Positions 375 to 54,687 of a stretch of 61,221 bases of DNA are shown here, in pieces. The stretch comes from a virus (Duplodnaviria; Caudoviricetes). The notes under the pieces were generated by a model, which had not been told where the DNA came from, searched no databases, and saw only the letters and a program-made list of their open reading frames with translations. The stretch is from positions 1-61,221 of the IMG/VR virus record IMGVR_UViG_3300049790_000015. The stretch is one strand, 5' to 3'. Within the stretch, counting starts at the first letter, position 1. Every line of letters begins with the position of its first letter. Position numbers and translations under genes: made by a program.

Positions 375-424
375 CACTGCCGGACCACCCCGCCTCGGCT
401 CGCGGGCAGGATGGTTCGGCAGTG
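375..424. repeat. Inverted pair of family B ~19-bp repeat
   Basis: cactgccggaccaccccgc ... gcaggatggttcggcagtg. Confidence 0.8.
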
Positions 425-433
425 TCGGTTCGG

Positions 434-757
434 TCAGCGGTCGCTGTGCTGGCCCGGTCGCGGAACATCGTGGACGTCAGCTGCGCGAGCGAGCCGCCTC
501 GTCACTTTGCGCGCGTCAAGCCACGCCCGGTTTGCGACCGTGCCGAGGTGGCGAGCCGCCCAGCCAGGCATGCCGTGGTCGTGTACGCGAATCTCGATCG
601 CGTGGCCGTCCAACTCCGCCTCGATCTTCCAGGTCCGCGCGTCCTCGCGGACGAGCCGCTCAACGGTCGCTCCCGGAACGTAGAGCGCGATCGCGGACGT
701 GACCTCGGCTGCGATCAGGTCGTTACCGCTGGGATCGTGCTTCTGTAGGTGCACCAT
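434..757 (-). CDS. Hypothetical protein, 107 aa
   Basis: MVHLQKHDP... start preceded by GGAGG. Confidence 0.7.
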   Translation of the reverse strand: MVHLQKHDPSGNDLIAAEVTSAIALYVPGATVERLVREDARTWKIEAELDGHAIEIRVHDHGMPGWAARHLGTVANRAWLDARKVTRRLARAADVHDVPRPGQHSDR

Positions 758-819
758 GCTGCCTCCTGTCGTGGGGGCCGACCCCCCGCCCGTGGGGGCG
801 GGGAGCCGGCCGGTTGGGT

Positions 820-942
820 TTACGGCAGCTTCTCGCATTCCGCGCAGCGACCGCGCTTGCTCAGTCCCGAGCCGTCCAGGACGGCGAGTCCGCACACGGA
901 GCAGAACGCCTCCGCGAGCCGGATCAGGAACCGAGTAACCAT
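820..942 (-). CDS. Small zinc-ribbon protein, 40 aa (not in ORF track)
   Basis: MVTRFLIRLAEAFCSVCGLAVLDGSGLSKRGRCAECEKLP; two CxxC motifs; GAGAGGAG RBS; promoter at 981-1019. Confidence 0.75.
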   Translation of the reverse strand: MVTRFLIRLAEAFCSVCGLAVLDGSGLSKRGRCAECEKLP

Positions 943-980
943 GTGGTCTCCTCTCGTCTGGGCAGAGCCTCCGCCCTGCC

Positions 981-1019
981 TGTATCTCTATTAAACCATA
1001 CGCGTGCCGCCCAGTCAAG
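981..1019 (-). promoter_or_regulatory. Family A promoter
   Basis: TTGACT-gggcGGCACGcgtatgg-TTTAAT. Confidence 0.8.
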
Positions 1020-1081
1020 CCCGACCTCAAACACGGCGACGCCCCCCGCCGTTTCCGGACAGGGGGCGCCTTCCGGCTCGG

Positions 1082-1342
1082 TCAGCCGGCCGTCGCCGCG
1101 AGACCGGCCGCCATCGACGCGCCGATCTGCGCCACGGCCGAGATCGCCCAGGCGTTCTGCTCGTCGCCAGGTCCGGCGAGGTCCACGGCGCGCTGGATGA
1201 TGGTGACCATCGCGTCCTTGACGGCGGGGTCGAGGAACACGGCCGCCTGGTATCCGGTCAGGTCCGCCTCGACGTTCCCGGTCGGGTTGCCGTCAGCCCA
1301 GTCTCGGGCGAGCTGGCCAATGCGCTCGTCGATGAACTGCAT
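1082..1342 (-). CDS. Hypothetical protein, 86 aa
   Basis: MQFIDERIGQ...; GAGAGGA RBS; own promoter. Confidence 0.75.
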   Translation of the reverse strand: MQFIDERIGQLARDWADGNPTGNVEADLTGYQAAVFLDPAVKDAMVTIIQRAVDLAGPGDEQNAWAISAVAQIGASMAAGLAATAG

Positions 1343-3851: not shown

Positions 3852-3900
3852 CACTGCCGGACCACCCGCCCCCGAGAGGGGAGCCGGGTGGTCCGGCAGT
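3852..3900. repeat. Inverted pair of family B repeat (hairpin after gene)
   Basis: cactgccggaccaccc ... gggtggtccggcagt. Confidence 0.8.
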
Positions 3901-4054
3901 TCCGTGTCCGGGGTGGGGTCGTCGCGGGGTCTCCTGTCCACGGGGAGACACGAGAGCCCGCCTCCGGGCCGTGAGTGCCCGAGCCGGCTCCGAGGCAGCG
4001 GGAGACCCCACGGAGCCCCGTCGCCGGTTTTGTGCGTTCGTTGGGTTGTGAGGC

Positions 4055-6518: not shown

Positions 6519-8360
6519 CTACACTGCCGGACCACCCTGCGAGCCGGCTCCGGCCTGGGCGGGAATCGGGATCTCCGGCCCGTCGTCCTCCGGAAGCGGC
6601 AGCGGGTCGGTCTCGCCCGGCTCGGCGACCTCGCCATCGAGGTACGACCGACGACGTCGACCGACCAGCCGAGCCGCCTTGCCCAGCCAGCGGCGCCCTG
6701 GGTCGGTGAACTCCGGCGGGTCGTCCTCGTCGATCGAAGGCAGCGCGTCCGGGTCGGCCACGACCCCCCGCTGGATCAGGTCGTCCAGCAGGACACCCCG
6801 GGCGATCAGGTCGATAGTGTCGTCCGGGACATATGCCCCACGGAATCGGGCATATCCCCTGCTGCCGGCATAGTACCGGTACCCTACCCCCGGCATATCC
6901 TCCGCGATCTCATGGCACAGGGCGCCCTGCGCGGACGCACCCGAGCCGAGAACCGCGTCGGTCAGCTCGCGGCTGCGCAGCGCCAGCCCCACCCGCTGTG
7001 GGAACAGGTCCCGGATCTCCCCCAGGGTCTCCTTCTGGGATAGCTGGGAGCAGGCCCAAATGAAGAACGCGGCCTTACGCCCAACCGCGAGGATCTCCCC
7101 CATGGGAGAATCGATGCCCTTCTTCAACATCGACTTCAGCAGGAGAAGCTCGTCGATCACCGTCAGGTCCAGCGGCTCCGCCCGGGTCGGATGGTGCTTC
7201 CTGGTCTTGGACGACATCGACCGCAGCCGAGCGTCCATCGCCGTGTGCTGCTCCTCGACTATCCCCGCCGCCCCGGACGGCCGGTCCGTGTACGCATGCA
7301 CATGGAACAGCGGCCGATCCTGCCGCAGGCAGCTCAAGCAGATCCGCACCGGGTTCTCATCTCCGGCCGCCTTCTGCACAGCCGACGGGATCCCGCCGAC
7401 CGGCTGCGCGACCTCGATCACCCGACGCAGCCCGCCCCGGTACGGGAAGACAAGCTCGCCGTCCGGCTTGTCCCCCTCCTGACCGAGCACCGTCCACACC
7501 CACGAGCCCGCCTCGCGAAGCTGCGCCAGCTCGACCCCGCCCGCCGGATCGATCACCCGGAGCCGGGTCGGAACCCGCGCGAGCTGCAACCCCGCGAGCC
7601 CAGCCCAGATCAGGTACGACTTCCCCGAACCGGTCTCGCCGGCCGCCAGCAGCGACCTCCGGTAATTCGCCTCTGCTGGCCGACCTCGGTCGGTCAACCC
7701 GACCGTGATCATCGGCGAACTCGGCCCACCTCGCTCACCCGGCGCGACCTCGCGGAGCTGCGCCGGGGGGTGGTCCGCCAGCAGCTTGTCCAGCTCGACC
7801 ACCGTCGCCAGCTCATCCACCCACTCGAACGTCACCAGCGCTTCGGACGGTAGCGAGCCCGCCACTCCGCGTATGTGGCGCATCCTCATCGACGAAATCA
7901 GCTTCGGCAGCGCGCCGCTAAGGTCAGCCAGAGTCAGGCCGCAACCGCCGAGGTCGACAACGCCGATGACGTTCGGGCCGTCTGCGCGGACCGCGACCAA
8001 GTGCGGCTCGGCGTGCGTGTTGCGATCAAGCAGCCTGGCGTGGGCGCAACCGCGCGGCCAACGTCGCCGTACCTTGCGCACTCTTGACCACGCTGTTATA
8101 CTGGCGCGGAGGCCCGCCACTCGGGACGAGTGGCGGTACACCCACCAGATGGCGAAGGCGGTCTTGACCGCCAAAGGCACGAACGCGCAGACCAGCGCGA
8201 GCGGCCACACGCCGCAGGCGTGCTGGACGTACAACGCGAACGCGAGCCCGCAACTCAGCAGCGGATGCCGCCAGCAGAACGCGCCGAACCGCCACAGGAC
8301 GGCGCCGAGCGTCCGCAGGTCAGCGAACGTAACGCCGCTGGACGCTCCTTTCTTACCCAC
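6519..8360 (-). CDS. ftsK: FtsK/SpoIIIE (TraB-like) DNA translocase
   Basis: N-terminal TM segments; Walker A AGETGSGKS; Walker B TVIDE; GRKAA..SQ; C-terminal PGVGY..ARFRGAYVPDD as in actinomycete plasmid FtsKs. Confidence 0.85.
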   Translation of the reverse strand: MGKKGASSGVTFADLRTLGAVLWRFGAFCWRHPLLSCGLAFALYVQHACGVWPLALVCAFVPLAVKTAFAIWWVYRHSSRVAGLRASITAWSRVRKVRRRWPRGCAHARLLDRNTHAEPHLVAVRADGPNVIGVVDLGGCGLTLADLSGALPKLISSMRMRHIRGVAGSLPSEALVTFEWVDELATVVELDKLLADHPPAQLREVAPGERGGPSSPMITVGLTDRGRPAEANYRRSLLAAGETGSGKSYLIWAGLAGLQLARVPTRLRVIDPAGGVELAQLREAGSWVWTVLGQEGDKPDGELVFPYRGGLRRVIEVAQPVGGIPSAVQKAAGDENPVRICLSCLRQDRPLFHVHAYTDRPSGAAGIVEEQHTAMDARLRSMSSKTRKHHPTRAEPLDLTVIDELLLLKSMLKKGIDSPMGEILAVGRKAAFFIWACSQLSQKETLGEIRDLFPQRVGLALRSRELTDAVLGSGASAQGALCHEIAEDMPGVGYRYYAGSRGYARFRGAYVPDDTIDLIARGVLLDDLIQRGVVADPDALPSIDEDDPPEFTDPGRRWLGKAARLVGRRRRSYLDGEVAEPGETDPLPLPEDDGPEIPIPAQAGAGSQGGPAV

Positions 8361-9181: not shown

Positions 9182-9628
9182 CTACCGGGCGACCAGGACC
9201 AGGATAATCAGCGCCCATACCGGTATGTACAGTGCCCAGCGTCCGAGGTAGGTCACGAATGCGTGGGCGTATGCCTGCCGGTGCCTGCGCATGCCAGGCC
9301 GGACCATCCTCGTGATCTTGGTCTCGATTGCGTGGCAGGTGGGGCACATCGGCCGAAGAACGATCAGCGGCGCGTCGCCGACCCCCCACCGGTAGGTGAG
9401 ATGGTTCAACTGCAGCGACCGCTGGACTGACCAGAAGCCGACCCCGCGTCCGCGCCTCCGGCACCAGAAGCACCGACGTCGCATCCATGGGCGCCGAGCC
9501 GCCTTACGCCAGTACTCGGCCTTGGTCCGCTCCCAGGCCGGTCCGTACTGTGCCGACCACTCGTCCCACCCACCTCCCTGCCCGCGTGATCGAGCCCGGG
9601 TCAGCCCCGGTCGGGTTCGCGTGCTCAT
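9182..9628 (-). CDS. HNH-like zinc-binding protein with C-terminal TM anchor
   Basis: CFWC...NHLTY...MCPTCH followed by a hydrophobic C-terminus. Confidence 0.65.
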   Translation of the reverse strand: MSTRTRPGLTRARSRGQGGGWDEWSAQYGPAWERTKAEYWRKAARRPWMRRRCFWCRRRGRGVGFWSVQRSLQLNHLTYRWGVGDAPLIVLRPMCPTCHAIETKITRMVRPGMRRHRQAYAHAFVTYLGRWALYIPVWALIILVLVAR

Positions 9629-10461: not shown

Positions 10462-11225
10462 GTCCGGGTCCGCCCTTCAAGCCAAGCCAGCGCCGTGGCT
10501 ATCGCATTTTGCGTCATGGTTGTTGCAGTCGTGCTAGCGTCAGAAGGTCGCATCGGAAGCCAAGCCCGAGCCGCCCCCACCAGCACCTGCAGCGCATCCG
10601 CCAACTCGCGCTCCTCGTCGAGCGATTGCCGCAGATAGACAGCGAGATCGAGAATCTCTTCATACGCGTCTTGGGTCGAGTTCCGGCCGTTGAACGCGCG
10701 TAGCGGCGTGCCGTACCGGCGCACTCCGAGCGCGAGCCGCCCGCTCAGGTCGCGCATCACCTGCTCGTGAACGACCGGCCCGGTCCCGGTCTGGCGCGGC
10801 ATCGGCTGGCTGTCCCCCGCGCGGCCGGCTCGGGTGGGGGTCGTCCGGCCCTCTCCCTTGGCCGTGGTGAACACGGCGGGGCGGCTCCGGCTACCCGAGC
10901 CGCCCTCCTCGGAGAGCCGCATCCCGCCGCTGCCGTCACCGTGCAGGAAGATCCGGTCGTAATGCGCCTGCGCGTCCTCGTACGTGAGCGCGTGGACAAC
11001 CGCCGGACCATCCTGCGGCTTGGCCGCCTCCGGGTGGGTCTCGGTCGCGAGCTGGTGGGGAGTGCAACCGCACAAATAGGCAGGGTTGAGGTCGCCCACC
11101 GTGGTCACATCCACCGCGTTCGGACACATCCGCCCGTTCGCGTGCCGGACCTCACGTCGGTTCCCCACCGCGTCCGCGATCCGATCGATGACCGACCGTG
11201 TGTCTTCCGGGTCGTCGCTGGTCAC
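10458..11225 (-). CDS. MazG/all-alpha NTP pyrophosphohydrolase-like protein
   Basis: C-terminal GVRRYGTPL...AYEEILDLAVYL (EExxD metal motif). Confidence 0.6.
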   Translation of the reverse strand: MTSDDPEDTRSVIDRIADAVGNRREVRHANGRMCPNAVDVTTVGDLNPAYLCGCTPHQLATETHPEAAKPQDGPAVVHALTYEDAQAHYDRIFLHGDGSGGMRLSEEGGSGSRSRPAVFTTAKGEGRTTPTRAGRAGDSQPMPRQTGTGPVVHEQVMRDLSGRLALGVRRYGTPLRAFNGRNSTQDAYEEILDLAVYLRQSLDEERELADALQVLVGAARAWLPMRPSDASTTATTMTQNAIATALAWLEGRTRT

Positions 11226-11431: not shown

Positions 11432-13467
11432 AGTCTGGCCCCTTCTGACTCCAATGTGATGTCGGTCCCGCCCACTACGTCAAACATCGCCTCGAACAGA
11501 CGGGCGCCTTCCTTCGCGATGTCCTCGACCCGCCACTCCTCCCCGTGCGGGACCTCCAGGTAACACGCGTCGTGCACCCAGTTGACCAGGATGCCGGGGT
11601 GGCTGTCCTCGACGTACAACATCCACTCGGTTCCCAGTTCGGCCAGGCTCGCTTGCACGAACCGGTTGAAGGCTTTGTGCAGGTCGTGGGCGCGCTCGTC
11701 CGGGAGGAACCAGCACAGCCGGCCGTTGATCAGCCGGACGTACCCGCGCTGCTCGGCCGATTCCATCGCGGCCATGACCGCATGCCGGAACTCGGGGTAC
11801 AACTCGTACTTCCACTTTGACACCATCGGCTCGATCTTGGCAAGGGGCCACTCGATGCCGATCTTGCTCAAGCTGGCTTGGAACGTCTTCGCCCCGACAT
11901 CGAAGATCAGCGAGAAGTTGCCTCGCTTCGCGACGTTCCGCATCATCTTCCACTCGGGCGAGTCCGGCGTCACCCCGAACAGCGACGTCGCGGTGATGCC
12001 GTGCGCGTCCGCGCCGGAGGTCACCAGGTCGAGCATGCGTGGGCAGGGAGCCCACCGGGCGGCCACTCGCAGTTCGGCTTGCGCGAGGTCGATCGAGTAG
12101 AGCGAATGCCCCGGCGTCGCGACAATGCAATTGTGGATCGTCGGGCAGCCCGAGGGCAGCCGGTCGGTGAGCTGGTAGTCGTTGGGGATCGCCTGCAGGT
12201 TCACCCGCGAAACCGAGGTCCGGCCGCTCCGCACGCTGGTCTGGTTGAACGACTGCCGGAGCCGGCCGTCGGAGCCGACCATGCCCGGGTATGCCTCGTA
12301 CCACTTCGACAGCGCGTCGTCCAGTTGCTTCCACAGAAAGTAGTCGGCCGCATGCGGTATCTTCCGTTTCGCCATCTTCCGGGCGATCTCGGCATCGAGC
12401 TTGGGCTTGCCGGTCTCGGTCGTGTCCAACGGCTCCAGGCGCGGCCCGTTGCCGCCCGGGTTTCCGGCTGGATCAAACCAATACCGCTTCGCATGATTCA
12501 AGTTCAGGTCGTTTCCGGGCTGCCCGGGCCGGAAGCCGAACGGCAACCGAGCCGCGACCTCGGACTTATATGCGTGGATCTGCGCGGCGCCCTCCAAGCA
12601 TTTCTGCGCGTCGAATGGCATGCCGCGTCGCTCCATCAAGTGCAACACCCGTGCTTTGCGGAACTCGCGCCGGATCCAGCCCTCGACCTTGCGCCGGTCC
12701 TCCTCGCAGTGATCGCGCCACTCGGCGAGCTTGCGCGCCTGCAGCACCCGCTCCCGCGCGGTCAGTTCCGCGTCGAGCGTCGCGTACCCGCGCATCAGGT
12801 CCCACTCAACCAGGTCGTATCGCTTCGGGAGCTTGCGCTTGGAAAGCGCCGCGAGGTCGCGCTTGAGCCGCTCCTCGTCGTCCTTCTCCATCCCGGCCTT
12901 GTACCCGCCTCGGACCTGCACTAGGTCGGGGGTGGTCCGCCAGTTCGCGGGGTCAAGCGCGCGCAGCCTGACGGCCGCCTCCTTGAGCGCCGGGCTGTAG
13001 GTCGGCCAGATCTCCTTGTTGGCGATGATCACGTCCCACACGACCTGGTCGAACAGGTCGAAACTGCCGGACCATCCTGGCCTGTCTACCCCGACTTCCA
13101 TCACAGTGCTGTCGAACGTCGCGTTGGCCATGACCAGTTTGCGCCTGTCGAGCCACACCCACAGAGCGTCCCACTCAGACCGAGGCAGGCAGAACGGGCC
13201 TTCCTGCTCCCAGAGCGACGCCTGCCCGGTCCATTCGCGCTTGTGCTGGGTCAGGCCCTGGTTGAACGGGAACGCGGCCGTCTGCACCCAGTCGGGTTTG
13301 CCCGGGATGAACCAGGCCATGGTGACTGTGGAAACGCGGGCGCCATCGTCGACGTGCAGGCCCGAGCCTTCTGTGTCTAGGCTGATTTCGACGTAGGGCG
13401 GCAGGTTGGGCAGGTCCGACGGCCGCTCGATCACAGGCAGCATCGCGGCCGGTAGCGCGGTGGCCAT
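11428..13467 (-). CDS. polA: Family A DNA polymerase with 3'-5' exonuclease (DpoZ candidate)
   Basis: Exo I LDTEG; SGRTS..NLQAIP; motif A DLAQAELR; motif B RNVAKRGNFSLIF; motif C VHDA. Confidence 0.95.
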   Translation of the reverse strand: MATALPAAMLPVIERPSDLPNLPPYVEISLDTEGSGLHVDDGARVSTVTMAWFIPGKPDWVQTAAFPFNQGLTQHKREWTGQASLWEQEGPFCLPRSEWDALWVWLDRRKLVMANATFDSTVMEVGVDRPGWSGSFDLFDQVVWDVIIANKEIWPTYSPALKEAAVRLRALDPANWRTTPDLVQVRGGYKAGMEKDDEERLKRDLAALSKRKLPKRYDLVEWDLMRGYATLDAELTARERVLQARKLAEWRDHCEEDRRKVEGWIRREFRKARVLHLMERRGMPFDAQKCLEGAAQIHAYKSEVAARLPFGFRPGQPGNDLNLNHAKRYWFDPAGNPGGNGPRLEPLDTTETGKPKLDAEIARKMAKRKIPHAADYFLWKQLDDALSKWYEAYPGMVGSDGRLRQSFNQTSVRSGRTSVSRVNLQAIPNDYQLTDRLPSGCPTIHNCIVATPGHSLYSIDLAQAELRVAARWAPCPRMLDLVTSGADAHGITATSLFGVTPDSPEWKMMRNVAKRGNFSLIFDVGAKTFQASLSKIGIEWPLAKIEPMVSKWKYELYPEFRHAVMAAMESAEQRGYVRLINGRLCWFLPDERAHDLHKAFNRFVQASLAELGTEWMLYVEDSHPGILVNWVHDACYLEVPHGEEWRVEDIAKEGARLFEAMFDVVGGTDITLESEGARL

Positions 13468-15567: not shown

Positions 15568-15893
15568 CGAACAGGCCCGACCCTCATGGTGATGGTCGTG
15601 GTCGCCACGATCCGGACGAGCGTCGAATTGGCGACCTCGACTCTGGTCGACGTGACGCGCGGCTCCGACACGCCGTGCACGTGGAACCGGCCGCCGTCAG
15701 GCACGCCCACGTTGAACCCCGCTTCGATGTCCTTCGCCAGCTCCCAGTCCAGCGCCGGATCGTGACCGCCGAGCCCGATGAAGGACGGCCGCTCCCGCTC
15801 CGCCCGATCGAGCGCCGAGTCCGGGTCGGGCACGATGTCGTCGTCGTACGAGGGGCGGGCCGGCACTGCCGGACCATCCTGCGCTGTGCTCAC
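15564..15893 (-). CDS. Hypothetical protein
   Basis: GTG start overlaps the upstream stop; carries a family B repeat (QDGPAV). Confidence 0.6.
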   Translation of the reverse strand: MSTAQDGPAVPARPSYDDDIVPDPDSALDRAERERPSFIGLGGHDPALDWELAKDIEAGFNVGVPDGGRFHVHGVSEPRVTSTRVEVANSTLVRIVATTTITMRVGPVR

Positions 15894-19445: not shown

Positions 19446-19516
19446 GACAGGCCGGACCATCCTGCGGTGGCGTTGCTCACCAGCAAGGATGGTCCGGCCT
19501 GCGATGGGTCTAGCGA

Positions 19517-32980: not shown

Positions 32981-32983
32981 GTG

Positions 32984-33394: not shown

Positions 33395-33437
33395 TGTTTC
33401 CTCCTACCGGCCGGCGAACTGCCGGACCATCCTGCGG

Positions 33438-35857: not shown

Positions 35858-36963
35858 CAGACCGCCCCGATCCGGGAGCCGCGCCCGAACAGCTCGTACA
35901 CGTCATCCGCCTTCGAGATGACCTGGCGCGGACTGACCTGGCGCTCGTTGTCGCCCGAGCCCGCGACCCGCGCGTATCCGGCCGGCTCCGCGAGGATGGT
36001 CATGATGGCCAGCGCCCGGCATAGTTCGCGGATCTGGCCGGGCGCCTTGTGCAAGTAGACCGGGCCGCTCTCGGTGTGCGGGGCCGCGATCGTACCGGCA
36101 ACCCCGCGCTCGATCTCGGCCCGTCGAGGGGCGTACAGTGCCGCGCCGGTCGTGTGCGCTGCGAGTGCCGTCCCGTCGTAGGCGCGGACGACGAGGCAGG
36201 TCGAGCCGGCCACCTCAACGACCAGCAGCTTCTCGCCGTCGATCATGATGATCTCGTCCTCGAACACCGGATCTCCGGTGATCGTGATCGACTGCGCGTT
36301 GGCGGTTCCCGCGAGGTCGGCCGCGAGCGTCGCCCCGGTGTCGACCTGGCGCTTTTCGGTGACGACCATCCGCTCGTTGTCCATGCGGATGAGATCCCCG
36401 ACGCCGATCTCGGCGGAGTTCGACAGCACCAGCGCGCCGTCGGTGTCCGAGATCGACTCGTCGAGGTCGGCTGCCTGGGTCTCGGAAGCCGGCCAGACGA
36501 ACGTGCCCGTGATCGCGACCGAGCGCTGGAACGTGCCGGTGATCTGGAAGGCCGCACTCGACTGGGCCGCGAGGTTGATCGAGAGCTGGTCGTAGGGTGG
36601 TCCGGCGTTGAGCCCGCCCGCGTCGCCTACGACGTACTGGCTCGGGTCGAGTGTGATTCCGGCGGTCTGCCCCCCGGTGGTCACCGCGTCGACTTCCACG
36701 ACCTCGTTTTCGTCAAGCCACAGACGCCAGGTCGTCCCGAGCTGGGAGGTCGGCCAATCGTAGTACCGGGTCCCGATCTGCGGATAGAACTGCCGGTGGC
36801 AGTTCGCATCGATCAGGTCGGTTGCGGCTTCGAGTGCGTCATCGATCTGGCGTCGCCTGCGCGCGGTCGCCTGCACGTCGAGTGCGGACATCACCGACTC
36901 ACGTGTGGCGTAGAAAGGCGCGCGCATAGGCGCATCAAACCGTGTGATTGCCCTCGTGGGCAA
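35857..36963 (-). CDS. Head-to-tail adaptor with inserted beta domains (start may be 36928)
   Basis: YATRE..LEAAT.LID..C.RQF adaptor-like N-terminus; repeated ID.E and RG..GT.AA.H. Confidence 0.6.
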   Translation of the reverse strand: MPTRAITRFDAPMRAPFYATRESVMSALDVQATARRRRQIDDALEAATDLIDANCHRQFYPQIGTRYYDWPTSQLGTTWRLWLDENEVVEVDAVTTGGQTAGITLDPSQYVVGDAGGLNAGPPYDQLSINLAAQSSAAFQITGTFQRSVAITGTFVWPASETQAADLDESISDTDGALVLSNSAEIGVGDLIRMDNERMVVTEKRQVDTGATLAADLAGTANAQSITITGDPVFEDEIIMIDGEKLLVVEVAGSTCLVVRAYDGTALAAHTTGAALYAPRRAEIERGVAGTIAAPHTESGPVYLHKAPGQIRELCRALAIMTILAEPAGYARVAGSGDNERQVSPRQVISKADDVYELFGRGSRIGAV

Positions 36964-37661: not shown

Positions 37662-39872
37662 TCACCATTCGGGACCCCACCCGGTCCATTGCGGGTCAGG
37701 TGCATCGAGCAGCCCGTCGTCGATCGGAACCAACGGCACGAAATGCGGGACGCGAGGACTCGCCGTCCAGCCATCGAACGGACAGAACCGGACGCCATCG
37801 ACGTTGGTCTGGAGTGTCGTCCCGCAATCGGGGCAATCGATCCGTTCCGTCGTCGCTTCGAGTTGGGCTTCGCGAATACCCTCGTCGAGGATCGCCTTGT
37901 AACCCCACCACCCAGGCACGGGGAGCGGGTTCGAGTTCACCACAGCTCGTGCGTCGTACGCACGCCCAGAACCGCGCGCCGTGTTTGCGGGCGCGTCGAC
38001 TTCCTGCCCCTGCGTCGCGACCGTGGCATTGAACGCCGCGCCGGAGCCAGCCGCCGAGCCAGCGGCCTGCGAGACCGACACTGCCGGACCACCCGCCGCG
38101 CCTGTAGCCGAGGCGGCATTTGCGGTTGGCTTGACCTGGGCTGTCGGGTCGAACGCTGCGCCCATCGCGGAGGCGGCTTGCGCGGGCGCGTCGGTCGGGA
38201 TGGTGGACGTCGCGTCGTATGCCGTGCCGGCCGCCGTCGCGGCCTGCGCGTGCGTGACGATGTCCGTGTGCCCGTCGTTCGCGGCACCCGAGCCAGCGGC
38301 TGGTCCGGCAGTGGGCGAAACCCGGGGGGTTGCGTCCTGGCCGGCTCCGCTGGCCGCCCCCGCGCCCGCGTGCGGCGCGATCGAGGGGGCACCGTCGTAC
38401 GCCCCCGCTGCCCCGCCCGCGACCCCGGCAGCCGGGGCGGTAGCCGGGGCGGGTGCCTGCGCCGCGCCGGTCGCCGTGGCCGTGTCCGCGAACGCGCTCA
38501 CGTTGCTCTGGCCGGCGACGGTGGCGTTGTTCGCCGTGCCGGTCGCGGTCGCCGTGCCGGCTCCGCCCGTGCTCACGTTCGCGGTCGCGTTGTTCGCCGC
38601 GCCGGTCGCCGCGCCCGCCGTCGCGGCAGGCGCGACCGATGGTGCCGCGTTCGAGGCGGTTCCGCTCGCGGCAGCCTGGCCGGCTGTTGGCTTGACTGAC
38701 GGCGCCGCGTCCGAAGCCGCGCCGGAGCCCGAGCCCGCCCCGGCGTTCCCGACCGCGCCCGTTACGGCGGTCGCGTTGTTGGCCACGCCGGAGGCAGCCG
38801 CCGCGCCCGCCGTCGGGCTTATCTTCGAGGTCGCGTCCTGGCCGGCTCCGGCCGCCGCTGCCTGGCCGGCGTTCGGCCCGACCAAGGGCGCCGCGTTGTT
38901 TGCGGCTCCAGTGGCTGCTGCCGCGCCGGTCCCACCGACCGAGGTCCGCCCGGTCGCGTCTTGTGCGGTTCCGGTGGCCGCTGCTTGGCCTGCCGTCGGC
39001 TTGAGTGACGGGGCGGCATTCGAGGCCGCGCCGGAGCCGGCCGCCTGTCCGGCGGGCGGCTTGATCGATGCTGCCGGGTTCTGTGCCGCGCCGGTCGCGG
39101 CCGGCTGCTCCGCGTGGGGCGCAACCTGCGTGGTGGCGCTGTTGGCATCACCCGAGCCGGCTGCCTGCCCCGCGTTGGCGTTGGTGCCCGGGACTGCCGA
39201 TCCGACGTAGCCGGTGTCCGAGAAACCGAAGTCGTCCTCGTAGACCGTGAACGAGCCGATACTGGTCTGGATCCCGAACCGGCACTGGTCGACGTTGTTT
39301 GCGGACCCGACGGTGGTGCTCGACTGCGAGATTGTCTCGTCGGCCGTGTTGCTGTCCTTGGACAGGAACAGCTTCAACTCGACTGCGCCGTTGGTCCCGG
39401 TGCCGGCCTGGCATTTCACCTCGACCCGGAACCACGCCCCGGTGGTGATGGTGGCCGTGGTGGTCGCCGCGACGGTGGTGCCATTCCTCAACAGCGAGAT
39501 GGTACCATCGGTGTTGACCCGGGCGGACGCCACCTGAGTTGGCGTGATCGAGCCCGCGAACATCGCCATGACGACGGTGGACGTGCCCGGCAGCGAGCCG
39601 ACGTACACGTAGGCTCGACAATAGGACGTCGTTCCGGATACGCCAGCGCCCGACGTCCATCGGACATCGGACGTCGAGGCGGTTGTGGTGGCGAATGCGA
39701 CGGACAACGTGCCGTGCGCGGCCTGCGCGGTCGCGAACTTGCACGTTGAGATGACGGCGTTGACAGAGTTCCACGCGGTACCCGCGCTCGGGGTACCGTC
39801 GTCCGAGTTCCCGGTCGTGACGTTGGTGCCGTCAGATAGACCGGTCTCGGCGGTGTTGGTGATCGTGGTCAC
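37662..39872 (-). CDS. Ala/Gly-rich repeat virion fibre protein
   Basis: N-terminal beta-sandwich-like domain; many ~22-aa repeats (AGQAAASGAA.NA..S..P); C-terminal CPDC..CPFD. Confidence 0.75.
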   Translation of the reverse strand: MTTITNTAETGLSDGTNVTTGNSDDGTPSAGTAWNSVNAVISTCKFATAQAAHGTLSVAFATTTASTSDVRWTSGAGVSGTTSYCRAYVYVGSLPGTSTVVMAMFAGSITPTQVASARVNTDGTISLLRNGTTVAATTTATITTGAWFRVEVKCQAGTGTNGAVELKLFLSKDSNTADETISQSSTTVGSANNVDQCRFGIQTSIGSFTVYEDDFGFSDTGYVGSAVPGTNANAGQAAGSGDANSATTQVAPHAEQPAATGAAQNPAASIKPPAGQAAGSGAASNAAPSLKPTAGQAAATGTAQDATGRTSVGGTGAAAATGAANNAAPLVGPNAGQAAAAGAGQDATSKISPTAGAAAASGVANNATAVTGAVGNAGAGSGSGAASDAAPSVKPTAGQAAASGTASNAAPSVAPAATAGAATGAANNATANVSTGGAGTATATGTANNATVAGQSNVSAFADTATATGAAQAPAPATAPAAGVAGGAAGAYDGAPSIAPHAGAGAASGAGQDATPRVSPTAGPAAGSGAANDGHTDIVTHAQAATAAGTAYDATSTIPTDAPAQAASAMGAAFDPTAQVKPTANAASATGAAGGPAVSVSQAAGSAAGSGAAFNATVATQGQEVDAPANTARGSGRAYDARAVVNSNPLPVPGWWGYKAILDEGIREAQLEATTERIDCPDCGTTLQTNVDGVRFCPFDGWTASPRVPHFVPLVPIDDGLLDAPDPQWTGWGPEW

Positions 39873-40480: not shown

Positions 40481-40802
40481 GAATGCCCACCTTCGCGGTT
40501 GCGCACGGTGCGAACGCCGTGCAGTCCTGTCCGTCGTCGCGGGTGGTCACAATCGACATAACTGGCCGCCCGTTCTCGTCGAGCGTGACGTTACCCGCGT
40601 CCGCCCCGACGTAGTCCTCTCGCTCCCGCGCCTCGACCTTGGCCTTCACACCGACGCGCAAGAACGGCGCGGTGAGACCGCGCAGGCCACTACACGCGTG
40701 AAAAGGAAGATGCGGGTTCTGAACCCGGGTCACGTGGGTTTGCGGGCAGTTTGGGCAGTACCACCCGCACGGGACCGCCTCCAAGATCAATGGCCGGACC
40801 AT
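40473..40802 (-). CDS. Zinc-binding hypothetical protein
   Basis: WYCPNC...FHAC; GGAGG RBS; start overlaps a family B repeat. Confidence 0.65.
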   Translation of the reverse strand: MVRPLILEAVPCGWYCPNCPQTHVTRVQNPHLPFHACSGLRGLTAPFLRVGVKAKVEAREREDYVGADAGNVTLDENGRPVMSIVTTRDDGQDCTAFAPCATAKVGIHA

Positions 40803-40849
40803 CCTGCCTCCCTCCCAACGCGTCAGCGGGGTCGATGTACGGGAGCTTG

Positions 40850-41335
40850 CTACGAAGACGTTCCCGTGCTCTTGCGGCGAGTCCGGCGAGGTGCGCTACC
40901 GGCGAGTCCGGTCTCGGGCTCTCCAGGTCCTCCGGCGTCGCTGCCAGCATCCGCAGACCCTGCAGCCGCCTCCGGATCGCCGGATCCGTCGGTGCTTGAA
41001 CGAACGTCACCGTCGGTTCCGCTCGGCTCATCCGGTGCGTCGTCGGGTCCACTCCCAGATCTCCCAGGAGTTTCGCCGTCAGCGGATCCGGCTCCGGCTT
41101 CTGGCCCGGCAGGTCCAGTGGCATCGGCCGGCTCCGTCTCCTGCTCGCCGTCGGTCTCGTCCTCGTCCGGATGCGGCTCGCCGTCGGGGCGCCCCGGCTT
41201 CGCGTCCGGGTCGGGCTCGCGCCACGGCACATCGTTCGGCGGGGGGAGCATCACAGCGAGATGGTCCGGCGGTGCCGGGTCGTTCGCGACCTCCGCGTGC
41301 GTCGCGCCTTCCCATGCGTTGATCTTAGGGGACAT
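40850..41335 (-). CDS. Acidic, disordered head-associated protein
   Basis: AGGAGG RBS; MSPKIN start. Confidence 0.6.
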   Translation of the reverse strand: MSPKINAWEGATHAEVANDPAPPDHLAVMLPPPNDVPWREPDPDAKPGRPDGEPHPDEDETDGEQETEPADATGPAGPEAGAGSADGETPGRSGSGPDDAPDEPSGTDGDVRSSTDGSGDPEAAAGSADAGSDAGGPGEPETGLAGSAPRRTRRKSTGTSS

Positions 41336-43821: not shown

Positions 43822-45455
43822 TGCAGCGCCTCCCTAAGCGCATCCGCCAACTCGGCAGCCGAGATAGAGCGGGATGTCGTCGGCCGTGAACCGAGGTCCG
43901 GTTCCGCCGGTCGGTGCGTGATCTCCTCCAGGAGAATGGCGGAGATCGCCCCGGCGTCAAGCGAGCCGGGGGGGTCTGCGGAGTTGGCGGCCGTCCGCAC
44001 GGGCACGTCAACCAGGCCGTCCTGGGACACCGCCTGCTGGATCGCGCCTGCCACCGTGTCCGCCTGCGGCGCGGCATTCGCAGGCCGGTTGTTCAGCTCG
44101 CCGAGCAGGATCGTCCGGAACGTATCCGCGTCGTAACCTGCGATCGAGCCAGCCGGCTGGTCGGCCGCTGTGTTCGTCGGAGCGTCGTGCTCGGCTGCTT
44201 GCTGGATCGCGCCCGCGATCAGGTCGCCCGTGAGCCACGCGCCGAGCTGAACAGCCGGACCACCCTGCGCGCCTGCGCTTTGGGCAGGCTCTGTGGCCGG
44301 CGACGTTGCAGGGTGGTCCGGCTGGTCGGTGGCGACCGGCGCGTCAGGCGACTTGTCGTCGTGTCCGGGCAGCTTGTCGAGGTGCGCGTTGAGGTGCCGT
44401 TCGATGGTGGCGCGTTCCGCGTCGGACAGGCCCTTGGTCTGCGGCAGCCGGGATAGTGCGTTGCGGACTCCGGCTGCCGAAGCAGCGCCCGGCGTGCCGT
44501 CGGTCCCGACGAAGTGATGCGGGAGTTTGCACGCGCCCTTGACGATCTCGCCATTCTCGACCTGATCGCCGTCGTACCAGCCGTAGACCCGCTTGACGAT
44601 GCTGAGGTCGAGCGGGGAGCCGAGCCGACTAACGTTCGCGTTGGCGTCCCACGTCCCCTCCTCGCACGCGGTGTCGTGCGGGCTGACAGCGGTGTCTGCG
44701 ATTAGCGGGATGTCGTCCTCGATGCTCTTACGAACAGCGTCGCCGTTCTTGATCTCGTGGACGATCCGCGCGCCGAGGCGGGTCGGGTCGAAATTGCGCC
44801 ACTCGAACTGGGCGGCCATGGCCGCGATCGTCCGGGCGTTCGTCGCGTGGTCGGTGGTCTTGTCCGAGGCGGCCGGAGTCGCCATCCGGTCGACCAACCC
44901 GGCGTCTACCGCCTCCTGGCCGTAATACCAGGTCTCGGCGCGCATCGTGTCGCGCCAGTCGGCTCGGGTACCGCCCGCCTTGTTCGCGTACGCGTCCGCG
45001 ATGTTGTCGCTGGTCTTGTCGAGCAGGTCGGCCGTCTGCTGCATGTCGGCCGCGTTCCCGATGCAGAGTCCGGACGCGTCGTGGATCATGACGGCCGCAT
45101 GGTCGCCGATCGTGACCTCGTCGGCTGCCAGCATGATAAACGACGCGATCGAGGCGGCCAGGCCGTCGACCTGGGAGGTAACGTGGGCGGGGTGGTTCTT
45201 GATCGCGTTGTAGATCGCGATGCCCTCGAAGACCTCGCCTCCGGGGCTGGAGATCCGGAGGCTCATCCGCTTCGCGGTGACGCCCTGCAGGTCCCGCACG
45301 AAGTCAGCCGCCGTGATGCCCCAATAGCCGATCTCGTCGTAGACGAGGACCTCGGCCGGCATGTCGCCTTCCCCTGCCGCGTTCCGGATCTCATATCCGG
45401 CACGCGGAGCACGCGCAGCCGACTCCCGCATGACCGGGAACGAGCGCCGTGTCAT
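43818..45455 (-). CDS. ClpP-type (S14) head maturation protease with scaffold-like extension
   Basis: ISSPGG, GLAASIAS, MIHDAS, ETWY..EAVDAGLVD. Confidence 0.9.
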   Translation of the reverse strand: MTRRSFPVMRESAARAPRAGYEIRNAAGEGDMPAEVLVYDEIGYWGITAADFVRDLQGVTAKRMSLRISSPGGEVFEGIAIYNAIKNHPAHVTSQVDGLAASIASFIMLAADEVTIGDHAAVMIHDASGLCIGNAADMQQTADLLDKTSDNIADAYANKAGGTRADWRDTMRAETWYYGQEAVDAGLVDRMATPAASDKTTDHATNARTIAAMAAQFEWRNFDPTRLGARIVHEIKNGDAVRKSIEDDIPLIADTAVSPHDTACEEGTWDANANVSRLGSPLDLSIVKRVYGWYDGDQVENGEIVKGACKLPHHFVGTDGTPGAASAAGVRNALSRLPQTKGLSDAERATIERHLNAHLDKLPGHDDKSPDAPVATDQPDHPATSPATEPAQSAGAQGGPAVQLGAWLTGDLIAGAIQQAAEHDAPTNTAADQPAGSIAGYDADTFRTILLGELNNRPANAAPQADTVAGAIQQAVSQDGLVDVPVRTAANSADPPGSLDAGAISAILLEEITHRPAEPDLGSRPTTSRSISAAELADALREALQ

Positions 45456-47730: not shown

Positions 47731-47903
47731 TGGGCGCGCTCCAACATCAGGTCGAGGAACAGCAGCGACAGGCCGACCGCGACAAACCCCACGGGGACCA
47801 GCCACATGAACGCGGCAATGTCGAGACAGGACAAGCCCGCGATCGACAGCCAGCCCCGGAAGGTGTCGGGCGTGAGCCGCACGCGCAGGCTCCGTAGCTT
47901 CAC
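47727..47903 (-). CDS. Small membrane protein, 58 aa (not in ORF track)
   Basis: Two hydrophobic segments; GGAGG RBS; start lies within a family B repeat; GTGA overlap with the portal gene. Confidence 0.65.
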   Translation of the reverse strand: MKLRSLRVRLTPDTFRGWLSIAGLSCLDIAAFMWLVPVGFVAVGLSLLFLDLMLERAQ

Positions 47904-47931
47904 TGCCGGACCATCCTCCCTGCCGCCTCGA

Positions 47932-51214: not shown

Positions 51215-51765
51215 TGGTGCTGCTCTCCTTCTCCGGCCGGTACCGGCCGCTTGATGACGTCCGCCGGAAGGCGGATGCCGTTGTCCTGCAGGAACACGAC
51301 GAGCGCCCGCTCGGTCTCGGGGTCGGGCGGTCCCCAGATTCGGAACTTCACGCCCGGCTCGCGGTAGGTGAGCTGGGACCCGCGCTGCTCGGGCGACAGG
51401 ACCGTGACTTCCGCCTCGCCCCCGACGTACAGAAACCGGACCACCCTGCGGTCCCGCCAGGTGCGGGGGTGGGACAGCACGACCTGATCCGCGCCGGGCG
51501 GCTCGATCTCGTTCTCGCGCCACCGGACCCAGCCGGCCGCCTCCAACGTCAACTTGAGCGCGTGACCGAGGTCGATGGCGAACTCGCGAGCCGCCTCGGT
51601 CGCATTTGCGGACGCGGTGAGTTCGGCCCACCGCTCGGGGTCGGTCTCGGCCATCTTCCCGTACAGTGGCATTGCCTGCGCCTTCCGGAGAGCCGCCGTG
51701 GTCCGGCGGCCAGCCGGCCGCGAGGTCTCCCCCACGGCCGGCTGGTTCTGGGTCGTCTCGGTCAC
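51211..51765 (-). CDS. Hypothetical protein in the purZ cluster
   Basis: Translationally coupled on both sides. Confidence 0.6.
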   Translation of the reverse strand: MTETTQNQPAVGETSRPAGRRTTAALRKAQAMPLYGKMAETDPERWAELTASANATEAAREFAIDLGHALKLTLEAAGWVRWRENEIEPPGADQVVLSHPRTWRDRRVVRFLYVGGEAEVTVLSPEQRGSQLTYREPGVKFRIWGPPDPETERALVVFLQDNGIRLPADVIKRPVPAGEGEQHQ

Positions 51766-52502: not shown

Positions 52503-53605
52503 GTGCGAACGACCGTGGTGGGTCCGGTGCCGAGCAGGCTCGGCATGATCCCGAGCTGCTCCTGCACCTCCTCGCGGAGCCAGGTCCGACCGACGTCGGT
52601 CACGCGGTCCCACGTGGTGGCGCCCGCCGCGTCCGAGTCGATGTAGTCGAGCATCGTGATCGCGAGGTGGACCGACGGCGAGTTGATGCCGCCGTTCGCG
52701 TCGATCGCCTTGCGCACCAACTCAACATCCCAGCCACCGACCCGCCGCACCTTGTTGGTGACGGTGGTTCGCTCGGCGGGGAGACCGAGGTTGGCCCACG
52801 ACGTCTCGTCCTGCAGCTCGCCGGAGTTGCCGGCCACCCGGATCGGGTAGGTCCGCGCGACCACCCAGACGTCGAGCCCACGCACCCCGGACATCCATGG
52901 CGAGATGCCGGCCATCGCCAGGAAGTCGATCGCGCGAGCGTCCGACGAGGTGCAGTGCGGGTAGAACTCGCCGTGCAGGCCGAGTCCGAAGCCCTGCGTG
53001 CCCTCGATCTGGACCGTGACACCGGCCTGCCGGAGTGCGCTCCGGAGGATCTCCCCCGTGTCGACACGACCGCCGAACAGATCGGCCTGTCGCCAGATCC
53101 GCTCCGCCCGCGCGGCTCCGATGCCCTTCCCGGTCGACCCGATCTTCGCGGTGAGCCGCCTGGTCGCCTCCTGGTCCTTGTGGTCGTCGGTGATCACGGT
53201 GGCGCTCCGGTCGACGTACAACCGCGACGAGACGTCGTAGCCGGCCGCGTTCAGAGCCATGGTCTCGTCGTCGAGCACCTGTGGGTCGATTTCCGAGCCG
53301 GCCGCGATGATCAGCGCCGAGTTCGGCGCGGTGACGGCCGCGACCGGGATCGAACGGAGCTTCCACGGGTGCATCTGCGAGTCGAACGCGACCGCGCTCT
53401 TCGGGTTGTCGCGGCAGTCCGCGTTGTCGCAGACCAAGGGCCACGGGCACCGGCCGTAGACGGTGTGCCCCGCGTTCGGTCCGGCGACGCGCACGCCGTA
53501 CACCGCGAATCCGCTCTCCTCGTCGACCCGGGCAAGGTGCCCCGCGATCGCGCCCTTGCCCTCGGAACCGAACTGGCCGCCCACGACCACCTGGATCTTG
53601 CTCAC
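52499..53605 (-). CDS. purZ: PurZ0-type adenylosuccinate synthetase paralogue (candidate dGMP to dSMP, Z-base pathway)
   Basis: GGQFGSEGKG (Ser where PurA has catalytic Asp), GPNAGHT, GSTGKGIG, EGTQGF..YPHCTS, TTVTNKVRR, TMLD. Confidence 0.88.
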   Translation of the reverse strand: MSKIQVVVGGQFGSEGKGAIAGHLARVDEESGFAVYGVRVAGPNAGHTVYGRCPWPLVCDNADCRDNPKSAVAFDSQMHPWKLRSIPVAAVTAPNSALIIAAGSEIDPQVLDDETMALNAAGYDVSSRLYVDRSATVITDDHKDQEATRRLTAKIGSTGKGIGAARAERIWRQADLFGGRVDTGEILRSALRQAGVTVQIEGTQGFGLGLHGEFYPHCTSSDARAIDFLAMAGISPWMSGVRGLDVWVVARTYPIRVAGNSGELQDETSWANLGLPAERTTVTNKVRRVGGWDVELVRKAIDANGGINSPSVHLAITMLDYIDSDAAGATTWDRVTDVGRTWLREEVQEQLGIMPSLLGTGPTTVVRT

Positions 53606-53709
53606 TTGGTCTTCTCCTCTTTCTTCGGGTCCGCTCCGCCACCCTGGCCCGACCGAAGCTTCTCGATCAGGTCATTGACGTCCTTGCGGATCCGCTCTGG
53701 CTCTGCCAC
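53602..53709 (-). CDS. Small peptide, 35 aa (not in ORF track)
   Basis: GTG start after GAGGAG; stop overlaps the purZ start. Confidence 0.5.
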   Translation of the reverse strand: MAEPERIRKDVNDLIEKLRSGQGGGADPKKEEKTK

Positions 53710-53720
53710 CGCGTCTCTCC

Positions 53721-53816
53721 TCACTTGCGCCGGTTACGGCGCCTGCTTACCTTGCTGACTCTGCGGCGAGCCCGCCGCTGGTCCTTGGTTCTACGCACCT
53801 TCCCCGTCGGTGCCAT
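53721..53816 (-). CDS. Arginine-rich peptide, 31 aa (not in ORF track)
   Basis: MAPTGKVRRTKDQRRARRRVSKVSRRRNRRK; GAGAGGAGG RBS. Confidence 0.6.
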   Translation of the reverse strand: MAPTGKVRRTKDQRRARRRVSKVSRRRNRRK

Positions 53817-53932
53817 CTGCCTCCTCTCGTTCGACGAGCGCGCCCCCCGCCGTCACCACACGTGCGGGGGGCGCCTCGCCGATGGGTGGCGCCATCTGCA
53901 GCCGAGCCCGGGGGCTACACCCCGCCCCGGCT

Positions 53933-53970
53933 GCTAATACCAGTTAATCATGCCGGTGCCCTCTTGTCAA
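53933..53970 (-). promoter_or_regulatory. Family A promoter for the purZ operon
   Basis: TTGACA-agagGGCACcGgcatga-TTAACT. Confidence 0.75.
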
Positions 53971-53985
53971 GGCCAAGCGCGGTCT

Positions 53986-54687
53986 CTACAGGGCGTAGGC
54001 GTGGATCGTGTTCGCGGGCTCGGACAGACCGGCGTCCCAGGCAGCTGGCTTGATCCCGGTCAGCAAACCACGCTGGCCCATCACAAAATGCCACCAGTGC
54101 AACTGAGCGTCGCGGGCATGGACCGAGTTCCCGCACGGCTCGGGTTTCACGCCCATGCTGCGCAGGATCGATTGCTGGGTCGCCTTGATGCTCGGCTGCT
54201 GGTAGAACGGATAGATCGGCACTGCCGGACCACCCCCGTCCGGCAAGGCGCCTCCATTCTCGGCCGCCTGGCTGATCGCGTAGTCGACCTCCAGGTTGTG
54301 GTCCGCGACGAGCCAGCCCATCGCGCCGAGCAGCCGCGCCGTGTGCATCCGCGAGCCGGACTGCTGCATCGCCCGATCGGGGATCAGCACGAAGTCTTCC
54401 ATCACCAGGACGTCCACCCACCCACAGATCGCGAGCGACCGCAGGGTCAGCATCCACGCGGACGGCGTGGTCTCGAACGACACCAGTAGTTCGTCGTCGG
54501 TCACCGCCCCCTGACCGAGCCCGACCCCCGCCGCTACCCCCACGTGATCGTCGCCCGGGTCGACAGCCAACACGCGCTTACCGCCCGTAGCCTTGGCCGC
54601 CTCGACTATGCTTGCCAGCTTGTCAAGCGCCGCGTCAGCCCCCAACACACTCGCCGTGTTCGCCTTGCTACCATCCGCTCTCGGCAT
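53986..54687 (-). CDS. RuvC-like Holliday junction resolvase
   Basis: VLAVDPG..GVA, LVMEDF, HARDA. Confidence 0.7.
   Translation of the reverse strand: MPRADGSKANTASVLGADAALDKLASIVEAAKATGGKRVLAVDPGDDHVGVAAGVGLGQGAVTDDELLVSFETTPSAWMLTLRSLAICGWVDVLVMEDFVLIPDRAMQQSGSRMHTARLLGAMGWLVADHNLEVDYAISQAAENGGALPDGGGPAVPIYPFYQQPSIKATQQSILRSMGVKPEPCGNSVHARDAQLHWWHFVMGQRGLLTGIKPAAWDAGLSEPANTIHAYAL

Follow-up and report, generated by a model that had tools for sequence, protein, structure and literature searches.

The genome in IMG/VR virus record IMGVR_UViG_3300049790_000015 carries a dispersed, asymmetric 19-bp repeat, an array that is real and strongly non-random, and whose copies are likely to be DNA sites recognized by a phage protein and specific to this lineage. 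The stretch of DNA analysed here (the window) is the whole of this record, 61,221 bp in length, entered as 'linear' with a completeness of 100% (CheckV); it represents a complete 61-kb high-GC siphovirus from soil, with a G+C content of 63-72%. As for the process in which the sites take part, we favor DNA translocation or replication, in which the phage protein would act with a machine that tracks along DNA, and we assign this reading a probability of roughly 0.35. The array belongs among the dispersed asymmetric words of phage genomes and is set apart by its regular spacing and its disregard of gene boundaries.

The 19-mer consensus GCAGGRTGGTCCGGCAGTG, searched with up to 3 mismatches, gave 20 matches (14 on the minus strand and 6 on the plus strand), whereas 100 dinucleotide shuffles averaged 0.04 and none of them reached 20 copies. 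Its 11-bp core, GRTGGTCCGGC, is found 26 times without mismatch (16 minus, 10 plus), and the same core read backwards, used as a control, gave 0 and 1 matches. The excess is also seen against a codon-preserving shuffle, the yardstick proposed in the preliminary description of this repeat, in which synonymous codons were permuted within each of 82 called genes and the intergenic bases were shuffled: 300 such shuffles averaged 2.1 cores and 2.4 19-mers and never exceeded 6, against the 26 and 20 observed. The preliminary description, made by eye, had listed 17 copies in one orientation and six reversed copies, and every one of these was located at, or a few bases from, the position it gave. The list of reversed copies was incomplete, however, since five more exact-core plus copies are found at 32909, 34330, 36596, 41260 and 55240. 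These are core coordinates, which start about 4 nt later than the 19-mer spans by which copies are designated below (for example, 32905 for 32909). Three of the 17 forward copies match in the core only, namely 9294 and 51431 (5 mismatches each) and 19447 (4 mismatches), and the copy at 51431 has the core variant GGTCCGGT; two of the six listed reversed copies, 19484 and 25713, likewise match in the core only. Another 9-mer that is frequent in the window, GAGCCGGCC, was set aside for want of conserved flanks.

The 82 genes used here were predicted with an in-house caller based on GC3 and codon scores and do not come from a curated annotation. A minus-strand gene block of about 49 kb runs from 55,980 down to 6,519, and plus-strand genes are located at 1.6-6.5 kb and 56.1-57.8 kb. 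The minus copies of the repeat are placed on this genome with great regularity, on average about every 3.4 kb. The 16 exact minus cores are separated by gaps of 1,704-6,319 bp, with a coefficient of variation (CV) of 0.36; when the two GGTCCGGT variants (31379 and 51435) are added, the resulting 18 copies have gaps of 1,704-4,937 bp and a CV of 0.27. Random placement gave a median gap CV of 0.92, and none of 100,000 simulations was as even as the minus set, nor was any of 50,000 draws of 16 random gene boundaries. The even spread that had been ascribed to the array as a whole is a strong property of the minus set, but it does not extend to the plus set, which is uneven overall (CV 0.81). Over the interval from 25.7 to 44.3 kb, the seven plus copies are fairly regular (CV 0.40, p=0.02, a post hoc value obtained with the ends fixed). 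The gaps between minus copies (379-54224) also tend to recur in size, 7 of 17 falling at 3,460-3,651 bp and 5 of 17 at 2,670-2,802 bp, and the two doubtful variant copies divide large gaps into 3,531+2,042 and 3,530+2,789 bp. This clustering is weak and post hoc (p=0.012 for 18 copies, 0.06 for 16 copies).

The term 'polarised', as previously applied to the array, overstates the strand bias. With the five overlooked plus copies counted, the ratio of minus to plus is 16:10 for exact cores (binomial p=0.33), which is not significant; it is 14:6 for 19-mers (p=0.12) and 11:3 after three inverted pairs are dropped (p=0.057). Among copies outside such pairs, six minus and no plus copies lie to the left of 25.7 kb and six minus and seven plus copies to the right (Fisher p=0.044, post hoc), all seven single plus copies being in the right-hand part. 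At four-fold sites, the mean GC skew changes from -0.13 to -0.03 at about 24 kb (p=0.007). Transcription does not change direction at this point and runs leftward throughout, from 56 to 6.5 kb. The four-fold skew is still negative in the left arm, where genes are plus-transcribed, and the minus array extends into this arm (copy 3852). The longest inverted repeat of the genome, at 23303-23391 just downstream of g38, has 32-nt arms of 81% complementarity and a 25-nt loop; it lies close to the skew shift and may be an origin or a terminator.

Intergenic DNA holds 9 of the 26 exact cores, another 4 come within 25 nt of an open reading frame (ORF) end, and the other 13 are deep in ORFs; the intergenic share exceeds that of the genome, of which about 13% is intergenic (p=0.005). 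The 12 same-strand intragenic copies are read in all three frames (7, 1 and 4), as had been described, and the quoted peptides QDGPAV, PGWSGS and RMVR were verified, along with QGGPAV. Two perfect minus copies supply the C-terminal six residues of two unrelated proteins and are immediately followed by the stop codon: 6522..6540 encodes the QGGPAV end of g15, and 22907..22925 the QDGPAV end of g37, the latter also overlapping the predicted start of g36. Another perfect minus copy, 15864..15882, lies 7 nt past the stop of g28, and its terminal GTG is the predicted start codon of g27. The terminal GTG of 47901..47919 (-, 1 mismatch), 12 nt past the TerL stop, is similarly the predicted start of g62, and an ATG internal to the motif at 40789..40807 (-, 3 mismatches) is that of g56. 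A start-codon role for the array as a whole was considered and rejected, as it holds for only 3-4 copies. The copy at 33417..33435 (-, 1 mismatch) begins 2 nt past the stop of g46 and 22 nt ahead of the start of g45.

The remaining unpaired minus copies are situated within genes, at 9294..9312 (exact core, 5 mismatches in the flanks) in the small ORF g17, where it encodes RMVR; 10998..11016 (2 mismatches) in g21; 13062..13080 (2 mismatches) in the PolA gene g23, encoding PGWSGS beside an indel-rich loop; 27844..27862 (2 mismatches) in g42, encoding DRMVRLC; 38079..38097 (2 mismatches) in g53, in a low-complexity segment (GGPAV); 51431..51449 (5 mismatches, with core variant GGTGGTCCGGT and 5' flank GCAG) in g67; and 54220..54238 (3 mismatches) in g71. 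A doubtful minus copy, 31375..31393, has only the core variant GGTGGTCCGGT with unlike flanks and encodes FGGPVT. The unpaired plus copies are mostly antisense to genes: 25713..25731 (exact core, diverged flanks) lies 25 nt into the predicted 5' end of g38, which encodes a PrimPol-D5 protein; 28468..28486 (1 mismatch) lies in g42, opposite ALPDHPA; 32905..32923 (exact core, diverged flanks) in g44; 34326..34344 (exact core only) in g48; 36592..36610 (3 mismatches) in g51, over a conserved GPP[YF] peptide; and 55236..55254 (exact core, diverged flanks) in g72, a DUF2637 protein gene. The plus copy at 41256..41274 (3 mismatches) falls in a 602-nt stretch without a called gene. Comparison with the homologues of relatives showed that the copies in PolA, g17, g53 and g71 fall in indel-rich, low-complexity or lineage-specific segments, the g71 segment being missing from the homologue in the closest complete relative (G006). 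In the RMVR of g42, 'MV' stands in place of other residue pairs found in more distant homologues. Together with the codon-shuffle enrichment, the use of three frames and this placement in variable segments and C-termini bear out the earlier proposal that selection acts on the nucleic acid. The weak copy 31375 and the reversed copy 36592 overlie peptides that are found in relatives too (FGGPVT also in G006), and these two may be partly explained by protein constraint, judging from the protein alignments. The divergent intergenic regions 1343-1632 and 55981-56164, where early promoters would be expected, contain no copy with up to 2 core mismatches.

As the preliminary description had noted, four reversed copies form inverted pairs, and in all four the minus copy has the lower coordinate, with loops of 6-39 nt. 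Pair 1 (375..393, -, and 406..424, +; 1 mismatch each, the latter with core GGTTCGG) is located downstream of g2 and has a predicted minimum free energy (mfe) of -59.1 kcal/mol. Pair 2 (3852..3870, -, and 3883..3901, +; 2 mismatches each) begins 15 nt past the plus-strand gene g8; its arms are complementary past the motif, over 21 nt at 90%, around a 6-nt loop (mfe -66.5). The arms of pair 3 (19447..19465, -, exact core with 4 mismatches, and 19484..19502, +, exact core with diverged flanks), between the SNF2 gene g33 and g32, are 100% complementary over 16 nt with a 22-nt loop (mfe -61.5). Pair 4 (44250..44268, -, 2 mismatches, and 44308..44326, +, 3 mismatches) is found within the protease gene g60, and its 20-nt arms are 95% complementary with 39 nt between them. 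Pairs 1-3, all downstream of genes, thus fold at -59 to -66 kcal/mol with 94-99% of the motif paired. Single copies show no consistent fold, with motif pairing probabilities of 0.45-0.80 that are similar to those of their flanks. The pairs might act as terminators; a terminator scan that requires a T-run flagged none of them, and they are without a T-run. An Rfam scan of the window found tRNA only and no family over the motif. The only sigma-70-like promoter match within 1-20 kb, at 313-341 (-; 10 of 12 positions, with an extended TG), is just downstream of pair 1 and upstream of g1. Pair 2 is directly behind a gene (3145-3837, +; E=2e-9) for a protein with a small, zinc-ribbon-like DUF6011 domain, which recurs in a second left-arm protein (4515-4859, +; E=2e-13).

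The repeat appears to be confined to a narrow lineage. No near-identical phage was present in the phage genome collection, and an exact 17-mer of the repeat was found in only four IMG/VR contigs, with one match each; none besides the window's own record has more than one. Among the matches listed, 15-mer scans of cellular-genome and metagenome contigs gave single matches per stretch in unrelated taxa; in cellular-genome contigs at least 120 stretches have the 15-mer, with one match each. No enrichment of the core was seen in the best 80 of 206 capsid relatives (52-74% identity). Eight relatives were read as whole genomes (G001-G008). G001-G005 are without the motif and without g15. The closest complete relative, G006, has a capsid protein of 72% identity and homologues of g15 (46%), PolA (49%), the XRE protein (49%) and the TerS-like protein (43%); k-mer scans of its genome found palindromic words only and no polar dispersed repeat, and G007 and G008 likewise have none. 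As single queries, g15 and PrimPol found no close viral relative. Relatives at or below 72% capsid identity are without the motif. In closer ones (75-89% protein identity), which were compared as proteins and not as DNA, the peptides encoded by the motif are retained at three sites. SQGGPAV and the stop are present in the 85% homologue of g15, although about 16 residues ahead of them have diverged. The 98% and 83% homologues of g42 retain DRMVRLC and have N for D at the reversed copy (ALPNHPA). The 75% PolA homologue has AGWSGS, the peptide that the consensus would encode in that frame, beside a 7-aa indel. These comparisons point to an array that may be young, lineage-specific and maintained. 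One assembled contig of a relative of about 90% identity breaks within the 10998 copy, where 67 letters replace 28 (four runs against positions 1-20000).

Other repeats were encountered in the relatives. A strong 'polar repeat' in G004 proved to be 28 tandem 15-bp coding units (7240-7690) of a pentapeptide-repeat-like protein and was set aside. G001 and G007 share a different over-represented 8-9-mer, ATCGCACAG or its complement CCTGTGCGA, which is 12:1 polar in G001 and is often found between a Shine-Dalgarno-like GGAG and the start codon; it looks like a start-associated sequence. G006 has a near-palindromic, operator-like 15-mer with core GACCCCTGGTC in 9 copies at up to 1 mismatch (28.9-32.5 and 41.5-49.3 kb), and the palindrome GCGAGCTCGC at 12 places.

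Three proteins are putative candidates for the binding partner of the repeat, and all three had been named in the preliminary description. The XRE helix-turn-helix (HTH) protein g34 (21028-21330, -) was verified as a match to Pfam HTH_3 (E=9e-9), and the FtsK module was traced to g15 (6519-8360, -), which matches phrog_1358 (E=3e-12) and has homologues carrying PF01580. The Walker A motif of g15 aligns to that of FtsK 2iuu; the protein itself matches no Pfam family, has a hydrophobic N-terminus and is taken to be membrane-anchored. Its C-terminal 85 or so residues are acidic and proline-rich with one basic helix. This extension is shared with the 85% homologue alone and is missing from homologues of the G006 type; the G006 genome is without the array. 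More distant g15 homologues, in phage contigs of about 50 kb, have a C-terminal GIY-YIG nuclease in its place. The third protein, g28 (15890-16273, -), had been called a winged-helix HTH; its predicted structure does bear a weak resemblance to a winged helix (template modelling score about 0.5), but the confidence of the model is just 0.64 (predicted local distance difference test). The gene is directly upstream of the perfect copy at 15864 and has no homologue in G001-G008. Another protein, g65, matches Sigma70_r4 and occupies the position expected of the small terminase; its homologues occur in relatives without the motif.

Gene identities were assigned by Pfam and PHROG scans of about 70 of the 82 proteins, including all ORFs of at least 300 aa. 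The structural and lysis genes include those for TerL (g63), the portal (g61), a ClpP-type prohead protease (g60), the major capsid protein (g59), the tape measure protein (g43), a large tail protein of 1,164 aa (g42) and the endolysin (g35). DNA metabolism is represented by the PrimPol-D5 primase-helicase (g38), an SNF2 helicase (g33), a PD-(D/E)XK nuclease (g30), a Sak4-like annealing protein (g25), the family A DNA polymerase PolA (g23, 11428-13467, -) and, by PHROG match, the FtsK/SpoIIIE-like ATPase g15. The genome also has a PurZ-type synthetase gene (g69, 52499-53605, -; phrog_1211, E=4e-78), which is absent from all eight relatives read as whole genomes, and because of this gene the phage probably carries 2-aminoadenine (Z) in place of adenine. 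A dUTPase/dCTP-deaminase-like fusion is encoded at 50285-51214 (-), and an MT-A70 methyltransferase (g74, 56409-57511, +) is followed by a PASTA-domain protein. The scans of these proteins detected neither an integrase nor a partition gene nor an L5-type two-domain repressor, although a remote homologue could escape them. The closest cultured phage is Streptomyces phage Dagobah (capsid identity 55%), and homologues of g42 are present in several actinomycete genomes, with prophages of several actinomycete genera carrying relatives of this tail protein. Two tRNA genes, Thr-GGT (58407-58501, -; 95 nt, ARAGORN only) and Glu-CTC (58900-58974, -; ARAGORN and Rfam), lie within a 1.4-kb stretch without called ORFs.

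We infer that a phage-encoded, sequence-specific protein binds the asymmetric site, and that the bound protein would load or orient a machine moving unidirectionally along DNA, the candidates for which are the FtsK/SpoIIIE-like pump g15 and the PrimPol-D5 primase-helicase g38. The copies would then be 'genome tags', kept by selection on DNA and specific to the phage lineage. Their primary set would be the 16-18 minus copies, spaced as described regardless of gene boundaries or local transcription direction, and their secondary set the 10-11 reversed copies, four of which are paired with a minus copy into long hairpins. A process linked to the DNA strand is favored over transcription because of the orientation contrast, the skew shift, the extension of the array into the left arm, the even spacing and the occupation of ORFs; DNA translocation or replication is favored within this class because the distribution follows DNA-strand asymmetry and not transcription. 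Several observations weigh against this reading. The Pfam scan and the sequence of g15 revealed no recognizable sequence-reading (winged-helix) domain, and G006, which has homologues of g15, PolA, the XRE protein and the TerS-like protein, has no dispersed polar repeat. The motif, at 11-19 bp, exceeds the short words of known translocase guides. The overall strand bias is not significant, and the left/right orientation contrast and the skew shift are post hoc and marginal. The apparent conservation in close relatives is seen at the protein level only, and the start-supplying junction copies (g27, g62, g56) and the hairpin pairs would suit a role in RNA or transcription equally well.

A more specific form of the translocation or replication reading holds that the minus copies are regularly spaced loading sites for the strand-tracking machine of the phage, either priming or helicase-loading sites for PrimPol-D5 or tags for the FtsK-like pump; we regard it as speculative and rather unlikely. 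In the priming version, lagging-strand sites would lie about one Okazaki fragment (about 3.5 kb) apart, and the plus copies to the right of the candidate origin at about 23.3 kb would serve the opposite fork. In the pump version, the copies would be self-recognition and direction tags for membrane-anchored g15. Either version, if true, would operate in a phage that probably uses 2-aminoadenine for adenine.

The array may alternatively be stoperator-like, with g34 or g28 binding the sites and blocking or modulating RNA polymerase along the minus block in the manner of the L5 repressor, whose sites are 13 bp long; this is possible, although we lean against it. Actinobacteriophages are the one group with established arrays, of more than 20 asymmetric sites oriented with transcription according to published accounts (PMC9283540, PMC6550527, PMC5721134). 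The copy number here is similar (20-26), most of the well-matching copies are co-oriented with the surrounding genes, and the intergenic excess, the four cores close to ORF ends, the perfect copy directly behind g28 and the presence of an XRE HTH gene all accord with such a role. Yet half of the cores lie deep in ORFs, seven single reversed copies occur within the minus-transcribed block, and neither of the two divergent regions in which early promoters are expected has a copy. The scanned proteins include no integrase, partition protein or L5-type repressor but just the 100-aa XRE HTH protein, a homologue of which is found in G006 without an array. When the L5 stoperators were recovered de novo, they comprised 21 sites in 50 kb that are uneven (CV 1.04) and have one orientation per arm, following transcription in all but one of the 21. 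According to two reports, L5-type sites are located in promoters and short intergenic gaps and need the monomeric two-domain repressor of a temperate phage (PMC9283540, PMC5721134). The stoperator analogy drawn in the preliminary description therefore fits in the number of sites (more than 20) and fails in the transcription-following orientation, the short-gap placement and, as far as the scanned proteins show, the cognate immunity repressor and temperate life style. A role at the RNA level is improbable in our view. Copies might be processing, stability or translation signals of long minus transcripts, with the reversed copies as complementary arms: there are four strong hairpin pairs with variable loops, the complementarity of pair 2 outreaches the motif, the mismatches of pair 1 are G-U compatible on minus-strand RNA, the start codon of the next gene lies within 3-4 copies, and each reversed copy is upstream, in the transcript, of a minus copy. 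However, single copies lack a consistent fold, no Rfam family matches, and a constant Shine-Dalgarno-like reading is precluded by the A/G variable position. Nor is there an obvious reason at the RNA level for copies to be evenly spaced within ORFs, and the minus copy at 3852 is in a plus-transcribed region.

The sites could also be cut, as in T5, the phiKMV-like phages and Pseudomonas phage tf, where a phage nickase cuts one strand of virion DNA at a motif; we consider the chance of this small. The known systems use asymmetric words of 7-20 bp, 4-14 per genome and on one strand, whose positions and sequence co-evolve within a phage group (PMC3517423), in a manner that fits the lineage-specific motif here. 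But the other strand carries 10 of the 26 cores, the scanned proteins include no nickase-like domain, and the nicks of tf are unevenly distributed (PMC3517423). A further possibility is T7-style promoters for an unrecognized phage RNA polymerase or sigma-like factor, possibly giving leaderless mRNAs from the terminal GTG. A conserved, co-oriented word of about 19 bp every few kb resembles such promoters, g27 and g62 are predicted to start at its terminal GTG, and a 2-aminoadenine genome may need unusual transcription signals. This explanation is nevertheless very improbable: many copies are mid-gene, the Pfam and PHROG scans of about 70 of the 82 proteins found no RNA polymerase family (a novel polymerase could escape them), and the sole sigma-like match, g65, is at the TerS position with homologues in relatives that lack the motif. 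The chances are similarly slight that the word is read by a host factor, whether as a Chi-like nuclease attenuator, a host regulator site or an uptake-type tag derived from the host chromosome. Uptake sequences, too, are evenly spaced, are found within as well as outside coding sequence and form inverted pairs at gene ends, but no cellular or metagenome stretch with many copies was among the matches listed, and relatives with similar structural genes are without the word.

Taken together, the disregard of gene boundaries, the overwriting of protein sequence and a spacing far more even than random would imply a process that needs a site every few kb on one strand, and such a requirement has not been described for any phage in the literature retrieved. 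To our knowledge, the handling, replication and transcription of 2-aminoadenine genomes are little understood. The reader of the word, if identified, could reveal a new step in phage DNA handling as well as a new sequence-specific DNA-binding module.

A few phage groups are known to have dispersed asymmetric words, in the form of stoperators or of nick sites whose function has been unexplained for decades. The closest anatomy among known systems is that of the uptake signal sequences (USS) of Haemophilus and DNA uptake sequences (DUS) of Neisseria. In these cellular genomes, an invariant core of about 10 bp with weaker flanks occurs in ORFs and gaps, forms hairpin pairs behind genes and is over-evenly spaced; the present array shares the core and flanks, the use of several frames, the hairpin pairs and the even spacing. 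It differs in belonging to a phage genome with about 26 copies and no competence machinery, and no multi-copy cellular occurrence was among the matches listed. The FtsK-orienting polar sequences (KOPS), the SpoIIIE recognition sequences (SRS) and the TraB/clt repeats are polar words that guide translocases and are scattered on the G-rich strand. The phage likewise encodes an FtsK/SpoIIIE-family ATPase, and its asymmetric word is scattered over the G-rich strand both within and outside coding sequence. The present word is considerably longer, however, and its strand skew modest, and the analogy to KOPS and clt made in the preliminary description is weakened by the lack of a winged-helix reader on g15 and by the occurrence of the ATPase in G006 without the array. 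Start-associated sequences of Cluster K mycobacteriophages find a parallel in the 3-4 copies that overlap starts, but most copies do not; G001 and G007, as mentioned, carry a start-adjacent polar 8-9-mer. The nick sites of T5, phiKMV and tf resemble the array in having a lineage-specific asymmetric consensus, a handful to 14 copies and an unexplained function, while theirs are on one strand and, in tf, uneven (PMC3517423), against 10 of 26 reversed here. In comparison with the L5 stoperators, the present word is 19 bp and not 13, half of its copies are in ORFs, its CV is 0.27-0.36 and not 1.04, its orientation does not strictly follow transcription, and it has neither a copy at the likely promoters nor an integrase or cognate repressor among the proteins scanned. 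With the stoperators of Cluster A (L5 gp71) and of Cluster CA Rhodococcus phages it shares a short asymmetric word in 20-30 copies, enrichment at gene junctions, an orientation bias and differences between lineages (PMC9283540, PMC6550527, PMC5721134).

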